A stretch of 64,000 nt of DNA from Octopus vulgaris (taxonomy: Eukaryota): positions 37,200,001 to 37,264,000 of the forward strand of contig OX597818.1 of NCBI GenBank assembly GCA_951406725.2, given 5' to 3'. The notes beneath the pieces were generated by a model. That model was not told the DNA's origin. It did not search any database and was given only the letters and a program-made list of their open reading frames with translations. Below, one piece after another: positions 3,019 to 59,929 of the stretch; positions within the stretch are counted from its first letter, which is position 1; each line of letters begins with the position of its first letter. Both the position numbers and the translations under genes were made by a program.

Positions 3019-3490
3019 AAAATGTTATCTGCAGGATGCCATAACAAAAATTTCAGAGTAATTACCCGTGCTAGTCAATCATTGTGATAGGTTGAAATTT
3101 GATAATTCATTTAGCCAAACTCAAGGTTCCACAATGTTTAAAAACCCTTAATGGTCACTTCTCCTAAAATTAGCAGCCAGATCTCCCTAGTATTACATCT
3201 AAGGAAGGGTATGTTAGAAAAAATAAAAAGATTGGATGACCATTACAGGAATTTTGATGACAGGCTTGATAAAGGCTGACCTTGGAATAAAGACCAACAA
3301 TGAGCCTTACCAGACCTGGTCTGTTGAATCTACTAACACCTCTCCATGCACACACACACTTCGTTATCCTTGGTTTAAGTAAATAAGTTATAATTGTTTG
3401 AAATGAAGCTCACTTAAATTCATTTCTTGCCTTACATGTATATTGCAGAAACAGAAGTCAGTATAAATCTACAAGGTATATGTATGCACT

Positions 3491-3831: not shown

Positions 3832-4041
3832 TTGCTGTCATAAACAAGTCAACTCTGCTCAAGCAGACCCACGATCAAAGGCAATTCTAACCATGACCAT
3901 CTCACCTTTCTTGGAAGTGTGTAAGGCTACAATATTCAATATGTCCTTTACTTATTTAAAATGGTAGAATATGATCTGAGGAAGATTTGACTCTTATTTC
4001 TAGCAGGTTGTGCTTTAAGGTAGAGAATCCCTCATTGACTT
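3832..4041 (-). mobile_element. Family E short element (HDV-like head), decayed
   Basis: Reverse strand reads aagtcaatgagggattctctacc...aacctgctagaaataagagtcaaatcttcctc, homologous to copies at 13219, 31638 and 38042. Confidence 0.7.
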
Positions 4042-4102
4042 GTTTCTTCTGTTTGTGATTTCTAGATATTGATTATATATTGAACGCACTAAAATATATG
4101 TA

Positions 4103-13170: not shown

Positions 13171-13218
13171 TGAATTTTCGTGTACAACCTGTACTGGAAT
13201 TGTACAGTAAAAACCTGT

Positions 13219-13694
13219 GAGCCAACTAGAGAGCACCTACTTGGTCACTCATCATCATCATCGTCGTTTAACGTCCGCTTTCCATGCTAGCATGATTTGG
13301 ACAGTTTGACTGTGGGCTGGTGAACCAGATGGCTGCTTCAGGCTCCAGTCTTGATCTGGCAGTGTTTCTACAGTTGGTTGCCCTTCCTAACGCCAACCAC
13401 TCAGAGAGTGTAGTGGGTGCTTTTACATGCCACCGGCACAGGAGCCAGTCAGGCGGTACTGGCAGCGACCTCGCTCGAATTTTTTTACACATGCCAATGG
13501 CACAGGTGCCAGTAAGGTGATGCTGTGCTCAAAATAGCAACCGAATTCTCCCTCACACCGCTCCTTACCATCTTAAAATATACTTTAGACATGTAGTCCA
13601 GAGTACACTGTACATGAAAAATAACATGGCATGGCCATGCGTTGTATATTTTTGATAAGGATCTGCTTGATAAGGACATCTTGGAAGCTAAACA
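13219..13694 (+). mobile_element. Family E element split by a family C insertion
   Basis: gagccaactagagagcacctacttggtcactc [insert] tgctcaaaatagcaaccgaattctccctc...ttggaagctaaaca. Confidence 0.7.
13249..13525 (-). mobile_element. Family C element nested in family E
   Basis: (cat)n, gtttaacgtccgctttccatgctagcatg, tgccaccggcac units. Confidence 0.9.
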
Positions 13695-14482
13695 GTACCA
13701 TCAAGATCTGTAATCATCTTACTCCAACTTACAGTGATGCTGTGGCACTCAAATTAGTTAACAACAAACATTCGATCAATTACATATCTCACACAAGGAT
13801 GTTGAAAGTGTACGACACTGCTGAATGCCATTTATTTTTCAAATATATTTTACCTTAACTATTTATTGTCAGGAATAGATTTGCGTTAAATTAGTTTATT
13901 ATATGTTCTATGAATTAAATTAAGTTTATTATATGTTCTATTATTTGGTGAATGGGAGGAGGAAATGTAGCTGAATTACATTCAATGAAGTCATTTTCAC
14001 CAACTTTTTAGAAGTGAAATAAAACTTACACAATCCTTTGTGCTATCTCTGGTTTTTTTTTTTTTAGGTTTTTTTTACGCATTTTTCTTTGACCTTTACT
14101 TTTCCACAAAAGCTACAATTGTCATTCTCAATTATATTGTTGTTGGTTTCTTTTCTTTATTCCTTGCTATTATTTTTATACCTTTTGAAGAGTTGTCATT
14201 TTTAATTATGCAGTTCACATCACTCTTTTTCCCTACCTGATGTTATATCACTTTCACTTCAGCAGTAATGTTTATCATTTTCTACATCCAATGCTTGCAC
14301 TCAATGGCTTTCACTTACCTTATCATAGCATTAATTACTCTATATTTAAGGTATTATGCTGGTTACGTGTTTTACATTGGTAGACCCAGTATGTCAGACA
14401 GCTTGGACTACTAGATTTTCTCCATTCCAATAAGGGCTTGTGTACCGTGTTCATAATTTCATGATCATTCAAACTGTTTATG

Positions 14483-19249: not shown

Positions 19250-19410
19250 TTTGTTGTTGTTTAGCTTCCAGTCAGCCCTGGAAAGAGAGACCTATGATAG
19301 TCACGGCTGTGACTATCCCATCTAAATCTTTTCTCTTTTAAGAATGGTAAAATGCAGGTTGAGTGAATTTGGCTGCAGCCTCTGTCAGGTCAAGCAACTG
19401 CATAGAGGTA
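19250..19410 (-). mobile_element. Family E element, decayed
   Basis: (ttg)n tail, gtcagccctg...gacctatgat, atttggctgc...caggtcaagcaactgcatagagg. Confidence 0.65.
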
Positions 19411-19608
19411 CATGTGTGGGTGAGATGGCTAAATCTTAGTTGTGGTGTGAATGTTTTCATATCATGACTGACCATATTATCATAGTGTATTATTAGTGAC
19501 CTACATTGGTCAGGACAAGACTGCAAAACATTCCGTCTCTGTCACTCCTTGTCTTTTGTTTAACTTATTAGGCTGCTAATTTTAGTCGTTGATGTATTTG
19601 GATTACTT

Positions 19609-20173: not shown

Positions 20174-21789
20174 TCCATAGTACTAACAGAATTGTTTCTT
20201 TTACATGCCTTGGCCTATGTCACAAAAACCCATGTCTCATGTTCACGTTGTACTTTAATAATTCGCCTGCAGTTATAGGAAGATGGCCACCTTTTCTACA
20301 GGTATTTCCATCAAAGCTTCTACATGGATGCCCAGCCTGCTAGAAAAAGCAACTAGATCTCAAAGTAATAATTCACTGTTTTTAAACAAGGAAGGATAGA
20401 TATATAAAGCAATATACAGTTGTAGATATACACTGAATATTTTTGATCAGAGCTGTGATGAAATTATGAAACAGCTTATGTTTCATAACATCACATCTGC
20501 ATTATGCAAAAAGAGAATCCTTTTGCTGTTCCCTTAATTTTCCCAAAAGTTAATAATACCCTAACTGAAGTGATATGATAGCAACCACTGTTTCCAAACT
20601 ACAGTATCCAAGTTAGCAGCAATCTGTTATATAAAATACTAATTTCACGCATTTGATAGGGCAAATGAATCTCTAATGCAATTTATGTATCTATATTTAA
20701 CTCTACTTTTATATATTTTCATTTACTTTATTTCAACAAATGTATACCTGCGCTCTACTTAATTATCATGTTTCAAAAGTAGCTAAAAGAATTTTACAAT
20801 CAGCTGTTTGAAGCAAGCAGCTATCTCTGTTATTTTAAGACTGCAATTATTCTTTAGAACCCTCCATAAATAGTGTTTATTGACTGAATAGGCTGTAGTC
20901 TGTAGATATCAATTTATCTATTGGTGGTTATGACTCCCATCCCTTAAAAATACAAGTTATTCTAGCAAAGAATCTGCTTGATACTATTTCTTCTCTTAGC
21001 CCTTGACAAGTATCGGTCTGTACTGCGAAACAGCCTTTTATATTGAAAATGATCTTCTCATGTTAGTTTTGATGTCTATTTTACTATTATTTTTTCCTTT
21101 TTTATCAAGTTTATATAGTTTTCTTCACACAGTGATGTAACATAAAACATAAGAAATTCTATTTCCTTAGAAAAACCAACCAGATTTCAATTAACATTTT
21201 CCAAGTTAACATTTTTTAGATTACAGTGAGCATGTTTTGATTCTATATTCTGAATCAATACCCTGTCACTTAATTAGACTGCAAAATATTTGAAAAATAC
21301 TTTTCTGCTTAAAAGTGCTCAATATCAGTAAAAGAAGTGCTTGAGACAGTATGTATATATTCAGTTCTCTCCATTCAAAATTTTCAGATTTTCCTTAAAT
21401 ATTAATTGCATAACTGTTAATTATACCCAATTAGAATCAAAACATCCATACAGTTGAACACTGGTTCAGTATCAGCTCCCACCATGAATGCAAGATAAGA
21501 AAAATATCCTCAGTCAATTTACTGATTTGTACTTGACACTTATAGTGAAAACTAGATTTCAAATTGTTGGTATCTCATGAATATTGATGATTTGCAGTTA
21601 ATATTTTAAAATTAATTTGCAAGACTTAATATTTCTTTAATTTCTTCATCCCTGTACATTGACCCACAGGAATTTATCCTTTCATTTGCAGACTCAAAAT
21701 AGTTGCAAGAGCTTACCTTATCAGACTTTATATTATAACTTTATTTTATAAAATCTTCTCAGCTTACTAACATAATTCACTCGTCTGTT

Positions 21790-22289: not shown

Positions 22290-22440
22290 CAGCTGACAAA
22301 AGAGCTTATACATGATCACTCAGCCTATGAAAAATAACAGCCAAATTGCATATCACGCCCTTACATATTTAAAAAGCAAAATAAAGTAGGGGTACATGGG
22401 ACAATGTGGTCCGAGATAAATAAAATGGGACGGTCAAGGC
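22290..22440 (+). mobile_element. Family E element, decayed
   Basis: cagctgac...tacatgatcactcagccta...aataacagccaaat...atgggacggtcaaggc. Confidence 0.55.
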
Positions 22441-31425: not shown

Positions 31426-31637
31426 TGCTTCTTTTTTTGTTTATATCTAGGTTGCTATACCACATTTTATCACAGGCATCATAAACTACATAAGAAAGAA
31501 AGTTTTTTTTTGCCTAATCAAGAAACTCTCTGTAACTGAAAATCAATGAACTTTGCTCTCAAAATGTCCTGCTTGCCATCCACCTACACTTAAATTGATT
31601 TATTACAGTTTCTTCTCCTGTTTATCAGCCCATACAT

Positions 31638-31840
31638 GAGCCGATGGTGAAACCTATACATGGTTGCTCAACCTGCTACTAAAGTACCCAAATCTCTCTC
31701 AATTTGAATGGTACTATCTCAGAAAGGATGCACACTTTGGATAATTTAGTCCTAGCTATCTGTAGAAAAACGAAGATAGGATGTTCATGGATGGACTGTC
31801 TTAATAAAGTTTTTCTCTATCAGATATGACTAACATTAAC
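31638..31840 (+). mobile_element. Family E element, decayed
   Basis: gagccgatggtgaaacctatacatggttgctcaacctgcta...ccaaatctctctc. Confidence 0.65.
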
Positions 31841-37274: not shown

Positions 37275-37472
37275 TAAGGCAGCAAGCTGGCAGAATCATT
37301 TATGTGCGGAGCAAAATGCTTATTGGCATGTTGTCCAGTTTCTACATTCTGAGTTCTAATTCCACTGAGGTTGACTTTTTCAGGGTCAATAAAATAAGTA
37401 GTAGTTTAGCAGCAGGGTCAATGTAATCAACTTACTCTTTCCTCAGAAACTGCTGGCCTTGTGCCAAAATTT
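37275..37472 (+). mobile_element. Family B SINE, decayed
   Basis: taaggcagcaagctggcagaatc...gagttctaattcc...tgctggccttgtgccaaaattt. Confidence 0.8.
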
Positions 37473-38041
37473 GTTCCTTCAGTTTGTGTAGATAGCTACT
37501 GTCCAATTGTTTACAAATGTTCAGTTGACTTTTGAAAATCTTTATACAGCGTTTGTGAGTATGGACTAATATAATTTTGATTAGTCACTATTAATTTGTA
37601 GTTTAAATTATTTATTTAGTGCAGGGTAATCACTAAGGTACAATGGTACAGAAATTGGTAAATGAATACAACTTCCATGTTAAAGTTGCCATCCAGAGTC
37701 CCTTGACAACCTTCATAGTGCCCTTGTAAAGTATATATGAAACACAATTTCTCATTTTATTGTTCAAATAAAATTTGGGACATTATATACATATATTAAA
37801 AAGTTTGTTCTGCTGTCTTCTTAAATAGAGAAGACAGGTAAAAAATAGGTTTCTTGTAAATTTCTTTGTGTTATCTTATACAATTATCTTTGATGATTAG
37901 ATTTTTTTATATAATAGCAATGTTTTCTCTCATAGCTTATTTTGTCAGTTATAACTAATAGGGAAAACATTAGCTATCAGATCTATCTTGAGTACATATG
38001 ATTACATCATAAGATGCACGTGTACATACTTATAGCCAAAT

Positions 38042-38148
38042 GAGTAACAAGGAAGTCTATGTGGTCATTCGACCTACTAGAAATAGAAGCCAAATCTCCC
38101 TCAAATCACTCCCTACCATCTTAGAAAAGGACACATTGGATAATGATC
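38042..38148 (+). mobile_element. Family E 5' portion (HDV-like head)
   Basis: tctatgtggtcattcgacctactagaaatagaagccaaatctccctcaaatcactccctaccatctt. Confidence 0.7.
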
Positions 38149-39470: not shown

Positions 39471-39600
39471 GCAGTAAATGTGAAGGCTTTCTTTGCTGAT
39501 GTACTGCTTACAAAACCATCATGGTTCAAAAGTGGAGAACAGAAAAATTCTACAAGAATGAAAACCAGCTTTACAAAAGTTTAGAGACAACTCAAATATT

Positions 39601-39814
39601 CTTTTCTATTCTGGGCACAAGGCTTGAAATTTCGGGTGAGGGGGCCAGTTGATTAGATCGACACCAGGACGCAACTGGTACTTAATTTATTGACCCCGAA
39701 AGGGTGAAAGGCAAAGTCAACCTTGGCAGAATTTAAACTCAGAATGTAAAGACAGATGAAATACTGCTAAGCATTTCACCTTGCGTGCTAACATTTCTAC
39801 CAGCTTGCTGCCTT
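39601..39814 (-). mobile_element. Family B SINE
   Basis: 16-bp TSD agacaactcaaatatt / agacagctcaaatatt at 39585-39600 and 39815-39830. Confidence 0.9.
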
Positions 39815-40339
39815 AGACAGCTCAAATATTATGTAGCTCAATACTTGCTCAAAAAAGTAAAGTAATTTAAACATTGACCGGATTTTAACTCAGAACATTA
39901 AGCTACAGAATCATTTGTTGGTTATATAGTCATATCATCAAAATAAAACTTTCACTTTACTTTTTCATTATGCAGTATCCCACAATAGTTTTCATTTTTT
40001 TTCTCACTTTTTGTGGGCTCTTGTAAGACAGTTTGGCATTAGAATAACTATGATAATTTCTTTTCTTTAAAAATTAGGTCCTTGTATAATAAAGGAGACG
40101 GCATTATTGGTATATATATAACTGTATTTCCTCCAGATCAGTAAAGGCTTTGTCTAGATAAGAACATCTAAATGCTAGTCAATCCTTCTGCCATCTGTGT
40201 CACATGTTTATAGGATTTAACATTCATTACTTCAGATTTTGAAGTCTTTTTCATTTGAACAGTTGTAGTTTAGCAGGAGTTGTGGATCACCAGACAAACA
40301 TTTTGTCCTTTATCTCTGTAGGATTATTAAAACAAGTAA

Positions 40340-48538: not shown

Positions 48539-49147
48539 TTTCAATTTTAAGTGATTTTACAGTGGTAAAGCCAAACTTCAGAAACTGAAATATCCTTTCA
48601 GAACTTTACTTCAACAACCGTTCTATTGGATTATGAAGTCAGAGAAACACAGTTAAAAATAATTGTACAGCATCTGTGGATTACTTGATAAATTGCAAAT
48701 CACACTCTATCCCAACAGTAGTTGCATTAGCACTGGCTCACCACCCCTACTCTTTGTTATTGCAGAAGTCAAATACACGAATATGACAACTCAGTCTCAA
48801 GAAGACTTGCTGAGGGAGAAAAAATATAATTCATCAGTGCCTTATAATTTTTCTTAGCTCAGAAAAAAAATTTTTTGGTTATCTTCTATTAGTGTTTTTT
48901 TACAGGAAAACAAAAAAATGCAAGCTTTTCTTTCTTCTCTTTTTTTTTTTTTTTTTTTGTTATATAATTTCACAATATTCTGATCAGTTAACATTAAGTT
49001 TTAATATTTCAGAAATACTTGAATAACAGAATCCTGTTTGTTGTAATAAATGTTGTTGGTTTTTAGCTTTGGATTGATCCTGAACAAAAAGACTAAAAAA
49101 CGAAGTCGTTCCAACGATGGCTGTCTCATCTAATTTTTCAAGAGTAA

Positions 49148-49511
49148 AAGGGTAAAGACCCCCTTCGGTCATGAATGACCTTGGGATTGCACCTACAAAG
49201 TTACCCTCCTAGACACAAGTCCGGGCGAGTTTGTTTATGGAAGACCAGCAGTCGCCCATGCATACCAGCCTCCCCTCTCCACGTCACCGATGTTGTCCAA
49301 GGGAAAGGCAAGGGTCGATACAGCTTGGCACCAGTGACGTCGCAACTCATTTCTACAGCTGAGTGAACTGGAGCAACGTGAAATAAAGTGCCTTGCTCAA
49401 GAACACAACACGCAGCCCGGTCCGGGATTCGAGCTCACAACCTCACGATCGTAAGCTCGACGCTCTAACCACTGAGCCATGCGCCTTCACGAGTTTTTGC
49501 GCTTCATGCGC
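49148..49511 (-). mobile_element. Family D-related tRNA/CORE SINE, young-looking
   Basis: Reverse: gtgaaggcgcatggctcagtggttagagcg...gagctcgaatccc...gtgttcttgagcaaggcac; 13-bp TSD ttttcaagagtaa at 49135-49147 and 49512-49524. Confidence 0.92.
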
Positions 49512-51828
49512 TTTTCAAGAGTAATGCATCTAGAAATACACTATCTAGTGTGTCCTTACTCTTATTAAGATTATGGTGTGTAATGTGAGGGAGATCTAGA
49601 TGTTTGTTGACCCAAATTGAACACCCGTCCAGAAGTTCCCATGATGATTTGTTGTATAAATTGAAATATTTGATGTTAGATATAGGATAGTAATCACTTT
49701 GTTTATGCCAAACCAAACATGTAGCTAACAAATAAGATATATGTTTTTTTATTGACATTATCAACCTTACCTATCTTCAGTTAATTATTTCTCAGAATTA
49801 CAATTATACCCATAAATTTTATAGATAGATAGATAGATTGACTTAAGCCATTGCAGATTCCCAGCAACTTAGTTGGCCTTGATAGCACTAGATGGTGAGA
49901 AGAAAACACGCATTTTAGATTGTTTTTCAACAGCTTTACTTAGCATTGTAACAAAAAAAAAATAATAATTTACTTGCCTGGTTACAAGAAATTCTGTTCG
50001 TTTACGTTTTTTTTCTTTCTTCTTCAAAATTTGATTGTTTTATTTTATTTTAAAAATCTCAATAAACAACAAACTTAGTGCCTTCTTATGATGGATGTCA
50101 TCTCAAAATAACTTTGTTCTATGGCTGTCAGTAATTTCAGTTTTTTAAAAGAAAAAGATGTTACTTCAGTTTATACGTTGACAGCCAACATATTAACTTA
50201 TTAACACTATGGTTGAAGGACAATACCTCAGGGGAACAGTTTGCATGCTTAGTACAAATATAATACACTCTTTCATATGTAATATAGTTGAAAAACTGCA
50301 GTCAGTTAAGCAATTAGTTGACCAAAGGTGCTTAACTCTTAACTTCCAGTAAGACACTACATTGTATGGAACTGCTTCCCTCAGTTGGTCCCGAAATGCA
50401 TAATGTCACGAGAATCATACTAACCTTATTGACATTCATTTCGAAGGAAGTAAGGAACTCTCTAATGTCTAGGAGGAAACTAATTCTATTTTCCATTTCT
50501 GTTCTATAACAAAATCATTACAAATGCAATAAAGTGGGTTGAAAATTTTAATCATTTGACTCATCTTATTACAATAATCACTCTTGTTTTTAGATTTGTA
50601 AACACCGAGGGGTTTTCTTTTCTACTAGTTCTTTGGTTAATCTCATTTGATCAAAGCTTTCTAAGTTAATGTATTACATATGTGAAATATTTTTATTAAT
50701 TTGTTGCCTCCTGAATTCATTGGAACCAGAAATTAAGACTATTAGTGAGGTTTCACATTTTGAAAGAATTTATAACAGCCTGTATAAAACAGCATGTATT
50801 TATTTCATTTTATGACTGTTAAAAGAGTGCTGAAACTAATCATAACAGTAAAGTACAAAATCATCGTCATCATCTTTGTTTAACACCTGCTTTCCATGCT
50901 AGCATGGGTAAGGATGTATTCTTTAATTCTATATAGTATTTGGTTTCATTTCTTAGGGCTCAGTGCTTGGATACTACAAAGGTTGACTTTTAATTCTTCT
51001 TTCCATAATAATACACATCGGTAATATACTAGCATTGCATTGAATCTATCACCTGTAACTCCCGCCTTTCACAATTTTGTGTTTCTTCATTTATTGCTTA
51101 AGAATGAAAGAAATCACAGTTGATTTGTTTTGACAAATTCCAAGGCAAAATATTTTGCGAGGGCGTTGATCTGAGAGTGATTTGTATTCAGAACAGAGAG
51201 GAACTTATTGGTTACAGTAGTTTGTTTATAAGGTGAACTGTACTGTTTGCTGAATCGCCACAACAAAATCCAATCTGCACAGTCACTGCTGTCAATGCTT
51301 TGGGCAATCTCTCTCAAATAAATCTTAATCATCCTAGTACACTATTACACTCATATTGTCACACTCAGTTCTTGGTGAATGAACTAAGAACATAACCTCA
51401 TTTCAACTACTCCTTGTTAATTGTTACTAATGCCTTTAAAGAAGGTATGAATATCACATCCTATTTCGTTTCCTGTAAAGATCTTAATTATTATACCTAT
51501 AAACCTATAGAAGAAACCAGTATTATATCATACAATAGAAAACGGGTCTACATGTTTTATAGTATTGATCCTCCACTGCTCTGAAGTTTCTTTTTCTTTT
51601 TAATTTCAGATAATTATCAGAAATAATTATCTGGTCTAAATCCTTCTCTCTTTAGAAAAGGGCTCTGTTCTTATTAAGCCATTCTGAATAAGAAGCACCA
51701 TTGTTAATTAGATAAGGTACAACCAGACCTGTGAGTTGTGTACTTTTCTCCAAACATTGGGTTGGGTACCTCAGGTAAAAAAGAAAAAGCATATCTACTT
51801 GCCTAAGGTTTAATGTCTACATGTATAA

Positions 51829-58954: not shown

Positions 58955-59013
58955 TATATATATATATATATATGTATTTATAATATATATGTGTGTGTGT
59001 ATGTATGCATGTA

Positions 59014-59065
<52 letters not shown>

Positions 59066-59068
59066 TAT

Positions 59069-59929
59069 TCTGATCAATAAGTATCCGGACTTTTGCCATA
59101 GTAATGACACTAAAGCATACTAAGTGAAGTCGTTTGGCACTGATTGACCTTGAACTCTGCTGTGCATGTGCACTGAGTTTTAACTTTCTAGCTTAATTTC
59201 GCTGTTTACAATAGTGCTTGGAAGGAAGGTGTGTAGTGTGTGATTGACCATGACAAAGAAAGTTGGGCAGAGAATCTGCATCAAATTTTGTCAAAAGCTT
59301 GGCAATACCTGCTCAGAGGCCTACTCAAAGTTTTCAATGTTCTTGACACAATTAAAGAGGTGTTGTGCAACTGAAACCCGAGTGTCATTTTGGTCAGCTG
59401 AAAGCAGTTTTGGCACAAACTTGGCAAACACACATCTCGTACCCAAATCTTCAGTGATAATGGACTGAACTGAACTGTAACTAGTCTTCACATCCTTTGG
59501 TAACTCACAGATGGGGATTCAGTGATTTCCCCTTACAGCTGCACACACATCTGCGATGTTTTTCTCAGCTCTGCTGGTTGTGGGCCTCCCAAAACGTTCG
59601 TCAATATCGACATTTTTTCAGCTATCTTGGAAACATCTAAACCACTCATACACTTGTGTGTGACTCATACACTCCTCTCCATACACTTTCTGCAACTTTG
59701 CATAGGCCTCTGAGCGGGTACTGCCATGACAACTTTCTCTGTCGTGGTCAGTGCAACAATCACATGCTACACACCTTCCTTCCAAGCACAAACAGCAGAA
59801 GTGATCTGTAATGTTAAAACTTTGTGCGCATGCACAGCCGAGTTCAATCTTTGCTAAACAGCTTTACTCTGCATGCTTTAGCTTCGTTACTATGGCAACA
59901 GTCCAGATACTTATTGATCAGACTTCATG
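59069..59929. mobile_element. Mariner derivative with two inverted 5' ends
   Basis: TIR tctgatcaataagtatccggact at both ends; plus strand MTKKVGQRICIKFCQKLG; minus strand EAYAKLQKVYGEECMSHTQVYEWF...DERFGRP...AKFVPKLL. Confidence 0.9.

Follow-up and report, generated by a model that had tools for sequence, protein, structure and literature searches.

Family E, an abundant and decayed octopus repeat whose ancestral head is predicted to have been an HDV-like ribozyme of the ingi/L1Tc type

Family E copies in the window and in the genome

The window, by which we mean the whole stretch of 64,000 nucleotides of Octopus vulgaris DNA that was analysed, contains decayed copies of a short repeat, family E, which are collected in Table 1 together with the parts of the copy at 38042. 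The first-pass annotation had listed seven such copies, and all of them proved to be real: six were recovered by a profile search with E-values of 5e-39 to 8e-10, and the head of the copy at 13219 was recovered separately (E 4e-4), its body being split off by another repeat. Three more fragments were found beyond the listed seven (3143+, 49647- and 49143-). The 38042 copy served as the first query, with the best 40 of 1069 candidates being scored, and the profile was built from genome copies and then refined. On reversed sequence, the first profile gave 0 matches.

Table 1 Family E copies in the window and parts of the 38042 copy
Feature	Positions	Strand	Basis
Near-full-length copy, best in the window	3844..4042	-	Profile, E 5e-39
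Copy interrupted by another repeat, with its head at about 13218-13251 and the remainder at 13526-13698	13218..13698	+	Profile search
Decayed copy with tail	19252..19413	-	Profile search
Decayed copy	20314..20459	+	Profile search
Decayed copy	22291..22440	+	Profile search
Near-full-length copy	31637..31831	+	Profile search
Further copy, newly listed	3143..3299	+	Profile search
Head fragment 49647-49518 and tail fragment 49143-49054, probably parts of a single copy interrupted by another repeat; newly listed	49054..49647	-	
38042 copy: head and part of the body, 3'-truncated, without tail	38041..38145	+	Profile and inspection
P1 5' strand remnant; 38041 would be the decayed first base (C to T)	38041..38045	+	Read from the consensus
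L3 loop, 7 nt, one CpG change; preceding P3 5' strand hit by a short deletion	38056..38062	+	
P3 3' strand (38063-65), P1 3' strand (38067-71), P1.1 partner A (38072)	38063..38072	+	
P4 hairpin, GAAA loop, one A-A mismatch	38074..38089	+	
J4/2 (candidate catalytic C 38091, alternative 38090) and P2 3' strand	38090..38102	+	Analogy

The 38042 copy keeps 20 of the 26 features of our model of the head: L3, P4 (apart from its mismatch), J4/2 and the 3' strand of P2 are retained, while P3 is damaged, part of it being gone. Its 5' edge has two readings, 38041 or about 38032; it ends near 38145, and no (AAC)n tail lies within 2 kb. In the ancestor, the cut would have fallen just 5' of the base matching 38041, but the copy itself is a relic that is likely unable to cut. 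A contig that is possibly derived from RNA spans the copy inside a continuous piece of 1753 nt; such contigs show neither RNA ends nor strand, and this one is uninformative on cutting. In runs labelled as other organisms, contigs X5 and X6 cross the 5' side of the copy and X6 and X8 its 3' side, with few-percent differences; as these contigs span the edges of the copy, the insertion is older than the split of their sources. The family E head forms very deep pile-ups in the X5, X6 and X8 data. Two further very high-copy repeats with deep pile-ups flank the 38042 copy, at 37280-37480 and 39590-39820 of the window, and an AT/GT microsatellite hairpin at 58985-59070 gives spurious miRNA matches in Rfam.

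Family E is an old, very abundant, non-coding retroelement. Profile searches of the source genome (2.8 Gb in 227 contigs; the window, at 37.20-37.26 Mb of contig C5, has 36% GC and a CpG o/e of 0.34) revealed many decayed copies of a repeat of about 205 nt, whose 3' end, seen in 53 full-length copies, is GCTAAAC followed by (AAC)n and whose consensus is without a long open frame. This agrees with the earlier description of a short non-coding element with an (AAC)n tail. The absence of a tRNA head was likewise borne out, as the A and B boxes that mark the tRNA-like head of tRNA-derived SINEs, searched for as short motifs, are missing from the consensus, and ARAGORN made 0 tRNA calls in the window. 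In 960 kb of unselected DNA (10-kb stretches from contigs C1-C25), the refined profile found 73 matches, 8 of which belong to a local array at a single locus. The genome total suggested by this density is roughly 2x10^5 fragments, a figure that should be read as rough, since the matches are clumped (variance 1.66, mean 0.76). The median identity of heads to the consensus is 0.69 (n=153 copies), and the mean is 0.66 in 80 unselected or incidental copies.

Several arrangements of copies were recorded along the way. One and the same foreign repeat follows the family E head or body at L076, L071, L123, L126, L152 and L176, which possibly reflects an insertion preference. Old copies also lie head to tail (L006, L011, L016, L020, L022, L024, L027, L030, L038 and others); within 150 nt, 15 neighbours are on the same strand versus 1 on the opposite strand among query-selected loci, where ascertainment likely inflates the rate, and unselected DNA contains no neighbours outside L079. 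The likeness between neighbouring copies (0.66) hardly exceeds that of random pairs (0.62), and such neighbours may represent insertion beside earlier copies or old dimers. At L079:3577-4618, six 172-nt units that are 96-98% alike derive from a decayed copy without a 5' end; we take this array for a recent DNA duplication. Near it lies a 34-nt minisatellite derived from the family E tail, and at L176:7520-8001 a minisatellite of about 30 nt derives from the part of the head that holds P4, J4/2 and the 3' strand of P2.

The consensus head and its 5' edge

We number the head from the C that precedes the G at which the annotation had started the element. In the family E consensus, P1 pairs positions 1-5 with 30-34, P2 10-15 with 60-65, P3 16-18 with 26-28 (including one G-U pair) and P4, capped by GAAA, 37-42 with 47-52. 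L3 consists of the seven nucleotides 19-25, P1.1 is the single pair U21-A35, and J4/2 reads C53, C54 and then AAA. As is expected of an HDV-like ribozyme, P3 has 3 bp, L3 has its starting U, a Y and the conserved G, and P1.1 falls within one to two pairs, with U21-A35 present in 91/153 copies and U-G in 20/153. The nested double-pseudoknot order P1, P2, P3, P1.1, P4, in keeping with the HDV-like helix order that had been proposed, is thus complete in the consensus, but in no single copy examined. Four CpG sites in the head consensus were restored by rule, and the conserved G of L3 lies in a CpG that was so restored. The string, drawn from unselected copies, is the same as that aligned by eye in the annotation, except that position 7 is A, the ambiguous R is A and one more C stands in front. 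By this extra C, P1, which had been given as GAGC/GCTC and called short, has 5 bp rather than 4; it is still below the usual 6-7 bp and has a C6-C29 mismatch above it. For P2, the register of which had been cautioned as ambiguous, the canonical spacing from J4/2 needs an A15-U58 pair together with a 2-nt bulge in P2, and J4/2 is otherwise long. When the consensus is folded by minimum free energy, P2 and P4 form as described, but the region of P3 and the P1 3' strand pairs differently.

At its first base, the consensus passes a loose HDV descriptor that was written after the consensus had been seen. None of the dinucleotide shuffles passes it (0/3000), and in unselected DNA it passes 140 times in 1.92 million strand-bases, or about 7e-5 per start. 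As both rates are low, the order of helices in family E is beyond chance. The descriptor misses the Ingi-type heads discussed below owing to a bulge in their P2, and these heads were therefore folded by eye.

RNAalifold predicted no pair on the family E alignment, 163 double changes were counted where 156.5 were expected, and the covariation score was reached by 166 of 500 shuffles. The covariation that the annotation had proposed to look for is thus not seen among family E copies; however, since neutral decay of one master predicts none, this null result neither supports nor refutes the ancestral fold. The proposed Rfam check also came back empty: when the window and four loci, all with decayed copies, were scanned, neither the HDV and CPEB3 models nor any other ribozyme family was matched. 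An intact head was found in none of 179 copies (the 153 and 26 further near-consensus matches, 5 of which are satellite units), and the best copy keeps 24 of the 26 features, both among the 153 and among the 26. The caution that no copy is intact therefore holds well beyond the window, and the suggestion that the element cuts itself out of host transcripts at present does not hold for the copies examined. We regard family E as a fossil. In the ancestor, the first 65 bases are predicted to have formed an HDV-like ribozyme of the ingi/L1Tc type that cleaved itself, and we consider the ribozyme ancestry of the head very probable.

The 5' boundary had been expected at the first G. It does lie at the foot of P1, as in HDV-like ribozymes, but one base earlier, at the C. 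This was read from DNA edges, RNA ends being unseen. The dinucleotide at the edge is CG, TG or CA in 41 of the 85 copies whose 5' end could be read, where 28.5% would be expected if the base before the G were flank (p 1e-4), and in 25/39 copies of a stricter set. In four of the best candidates for target-site duplication (L031, L028, L003 and L022), the match stops one base before the edge C. As C1 pairs with G34, the edge seen in the genome falls where the cut is predicted. The duplications themselves are weakly enriched, at 8/53 versus 4.6% in the control, with 8/53 also being reached at an unrelated offset. In the 5' flanks, the second base ahead of the first G is A more often than expected (42/85, p 0.004), a possible target preference.

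Relatives of the head and candidate partner LINEs

The closest likeness was found in trypanosomes. As described in PMC3185411, L1TcRz cuts 5' of C1, its P1 is closed with G37 and its P1.1 is a single pair, the start at C1, the closing G and the one-pair P1.1 being common to trypanosome ingi-clade ribozymes. The T. brucei SIDER2 heads given in PMC4035085 have GCC/GGC as P3, UCAACGU as L3, U after the 3' strand of P1 and GCCAAAU in J4/2, where the family E head has GCC/GGU, UCUACGU, A and GCCAAAU. By eye, L3 is identical at 6/7 bases, and the sole difference is the P1.1 base, whose partner changes too (A-U to U-A), although it should be noted that this is a comparison of short motifs across two lineages without a statistical test. 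From what these sources and PMC3383444 describe, NARTc (L1Tc), RIME (ingi) and the SIDERs, with their Pr77/L1TcRz head, resemble family E in being short and non-coding, with an HDV-order head that begins at a C1 paired to G, a 3-bp P3 of the form RCC/GGY, a single-pair P1.1 and GCCAAAU in J4/2. They differ from it in P1, which has 7 bp as read from L1Tc primers and SIDER sequences rather than 5, in P1.1 (A-U rather than U-A) and in the tail, which is poly(A) rather than (AAC)n. Family E, moreover, has an animal host and about 10^5 copies, no parent LINE was found for it, and its head is known from sequence.

Other known systems share less. The annotation had compared L3 with those of CPEB3 and HDV; the 7-nt L3 of CPEB3 indeed likewise ends in ACGU, but the ingi/L1Tc head of trypanosomes is nearer as a model. 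CPEB3 and HDV ribozymes start with G and have C-G in P1.1. They have the helix order and the single P1.1 pair in common with family E, which, unlike them, starts with C, has U-A in P1.1 and is not matched by their Rfam models. Bipartite non-autonomous LINEs (SIDEs; of RTE, Ingi, Vingi and R2) are, as family E is, without a small-RNA head and are described with a 5' ribozyme and a microsatellite tail (PMC5786205, PMC3774820), whereas the ends of family E are unmatched to any LINE sampled and its insertion, unlike that of R2, is not site-specific. In LP-SINEs of snails and bivalves, a LINE-derived head of about 70 nt takes the place of the tRNA (PMC4758252), and the head of scallop MESC SINE, the one LP-SINE head compared, is by eye a different sequence.

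In the same genome, RNase H and RT searches revealed three LINE families of Ingi type, each with an (AAC)n end. The LINE at L217 has PHD, RT and RNase H domains (Pfam) and a 2A-like motif, and we provisionally take it to be Ingi by its domain order, rather than by a tree. It has an HDV-order head of its own with C-G at P1.1 and ends in an (AAC)n tail. Mini-copies of this type, shortened by internal deletion, are found at L227-L229 and L232-L235. In Ingi, 2A is known (PMC3708506). The Ingi-type head in this genome has a P2 with a 1-nt bulge, and the first 80 nt of the L217 LINE align weakly with family E (p 0.02-0.05, five copies). A head-like stretch upstream of this LINE was rejected as its head, being a neighbouring decayed family E copy. 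The Ingi mini-elements (L217/L225-L235) are like family E in their HDV-order head starting from C, in a similar 20 nt after P2 and in their GCTAAAC(AAC)n end, and unlike it in that about a dozen copies were seen and that body and tail are unrelated. Considered on their own, L225-L235 (contig C10:about 3,419,790, and others) form a low-copy group of Ingi-type LINE and mini-elements that is much better preserved than family E, with a head having a 7-bp P1, C-G as P1.1, a short P4 and a CGAA junction, and with mini-elements ending in (AAC)n. In another Ingi-type copy (L178/L238, contig C11:30.77 Mb), the 2A-containing N-terminal piece is inverted relative to the RT part, as twin priming gives.

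The autonomous LINE with the same head and tail that had been suggested was not found among the top candidates scored. No parent sharing either the head or the tail was present among loci with PF00078 or PF00075 and the matches of two Ingi protein queries, nor was one reached through flanks of tail-only or head-only copies, a 2A pattern (3 matches) or tblastn of Ingi pieces on 1.2 Mb. The 3' end of family E was shared by none of three Ingi, three RTE-like and two CR1-like families among those candidates, and its tail does not align with the three Ingi tails (p 0.23-0.91). The PF00078 loci, which were CR1-like, RTE-like and one LTR element, were rejected as parents as they share neither end of family E, and the abundant weak matches to the Ingi query proved to be CR1-like by their C-terminus in the two loci viewed. 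An Ingi RT query returned no Vingi-like family among the best 150 of 24,435 candidates. Two young, abundant CR1-like LINE families, with open frames of 949 and about 1019 aa, were noted at L157, L158, L161 and L266-L291. A partner of the Ingi/Vingi clade appears rather likely to us.

Origin of the family and its satellite offshoot

By analogy with NARTc and RIME, we think it probable that family E is a mini-retrotransposon with an ancestral ingi-type ribozyme head, likely inherited from an Ingi-clade LINE, and that it likely worked as they do. A master copy would have been transcribed, by read-through from a host gene or from an internal promoter, and the ribozyme would then have cut just 5' of C1 and left an identical front end on every RNA. 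The reverse transcriptase of an Ingi-like LINE may have recognised the 3' end, with insertion by target-primed reverse transcription, and the inserted copies would have decayed neutrally thereafter. A like course has been proposed for NARTc and RIME (PMC3383444, PMC5786205). The helix order, the edge at the foot of P1 and the match to the trypanosome motifs count for the ribozyme ancestry of the head. Against the ribozyme reading count the 5-bp P1 with its C-C mismatch, the bulge in P2 or long J4/2, the minimum free energy fold with its different pairing around P3, and the inactive T. brucei SIDER heads, which are the nearest match in motifs and yet, including those that folded well, failed to cut in vitro (PMC4035085). 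For comparison, P1 stems of R2 are typically 6-7 bp, with one 4-nt P1 described as active, and C-C and U-U mismatches in P1 have been tied to lower activity, mismatches being present in a quarter of R2s (PMC3774820). The lack of covariation, of an Rfam match and of a parent LINE, and the weak duplications, count against the explanation as a whole.

As no Ingi parent was found and the tails do not align, family E could instead have arisen as a bipartite or chimeric element from a different clade (Vingi, RTE, LOA or R4), or carry a swapped tail, and not be an Ingi mini-element, even with a ribozyme as its head. HDV-like heads are described in RTE, R1, R2, R4 and LOA, and RTE and Vingi form bipartite elements (PMC5786205). 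However, the sampled RTE-like and CR1-like loci share neither end of family E, no Vingi-like family was among the best 150 of the 24,435 Ingi RT candidates, and the set of motifs together with the (AAC)n tail fits the local Ingi families, so that we view this origin as possible, though rather unlikely. The short P1 with its C-C mismatch and the weak U-A P1.1 might also mean that the master carried a head of ingi-type ribozyme origin that by then had little or no cutting activity, and that the family would have spread from a promoter inside the head's own 70 bases, the edge being the start of transcription. Pr77 is in fact both promoter and ribozyme (PMC3383444), and the well-folded SIDER heads that do not cut fit such a course as well. 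In the consensus, however, all helices and conserved loop bases are complete despite long amplification, and the change in P1.1 is compensated; such a course seems improbable to us. That an ordinary SINE or a MITE-like repeat of unknown origin has this fold by coincidence, for which the absent covariation and Rfam match and the choice of descriptor and CpG restoration after seeing the data could speak, is very improbable given the low shuffle and background rates, the coincidence of the edge with the foot of P1 and the L3, P3 and J4/2 motifs held in common with tested trypanosome ribozymes.

Short ribozyme-headed LINE derivatives are already known from trypanosomes and flies. Our literature search found no HDV-like ribozyme in octopus and no 16-nt P4 motif, while the family may already be named in Repbase or Dfam. 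If the ancestor of family E did cut, it would be an ingi-type ribozyme-headed mini-retrotransposon that occupies on the order of 1% of the 2.8 Gb of a mollusc genome, with an abundance far above that of the trypanosome examples, and the trypanosome Pr77 head would be tied to animals by sequence. It would also add to a natural series of P1.1 pairs (A-U, U-A and C-G), members of which would be missed by descriptors that allow C-G only, and it would mean that a ribozyme can be what heads "SINEs of unknown head".

When the best copy was used as a query, young tandem arrays came to light, the unit of which is 95-107 nt long and consists of head positions 1 to about 86 and a TATG run. The 263 units in 19 merged regions are near-identical and follow one consensus, in which one extra A lengthens P2 to 7 bp and makes P3 ACC/GGU, as in ingi. 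An extra-A subfamily among dispersed copies was considered and rejected, as 5 of 107 copies favour it, 84 go against it and 18 tie. None of the 263 units keeps all pairs together with the L3 G and the catalytic C; the fixed lesions are a G-A mismatch in P1 (244 units), A in place of the L3 G (231) and G-G in P4 (179). Both ends of the arrays vary, and at 4 of 22 loci the array continues into old family E body or tail. The plain reading is that the arrays are a satellite at the DNA level.

Animal non-LTR retrozymes, which carry hammerheads, are described as tandem arrays of a short ribozyme-bearing unit (PMC7761336), and of family E this satellite side family alone resembles them, differing in its broken HDV-type fold and in its confinement to three contigs among the matches listed. 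That the head lives on as an HDV-type retrozyme, with array RNA cut to monomers (P1 perhaps arising across the border of adjacent units) that become circular and insert again into old copies, is scarcely credible: the unit is almost the head alone, has gained the longer P2 and ingi-like P3 and is near-identical over the 19 regions, but none of the units has an intact ribozyme, array ends vary, the matches listed are confined to a few contigs, and continuation into old body or tail fits a spread at the DNA level by way of dispersed copies. Of 267 array matches, the 150 listed all lie on contigs C28-C30, three small chromosomes, and dozens of arrays are seen among the matches listed (L306, L313, L317, L319, L320 and L322-L351).
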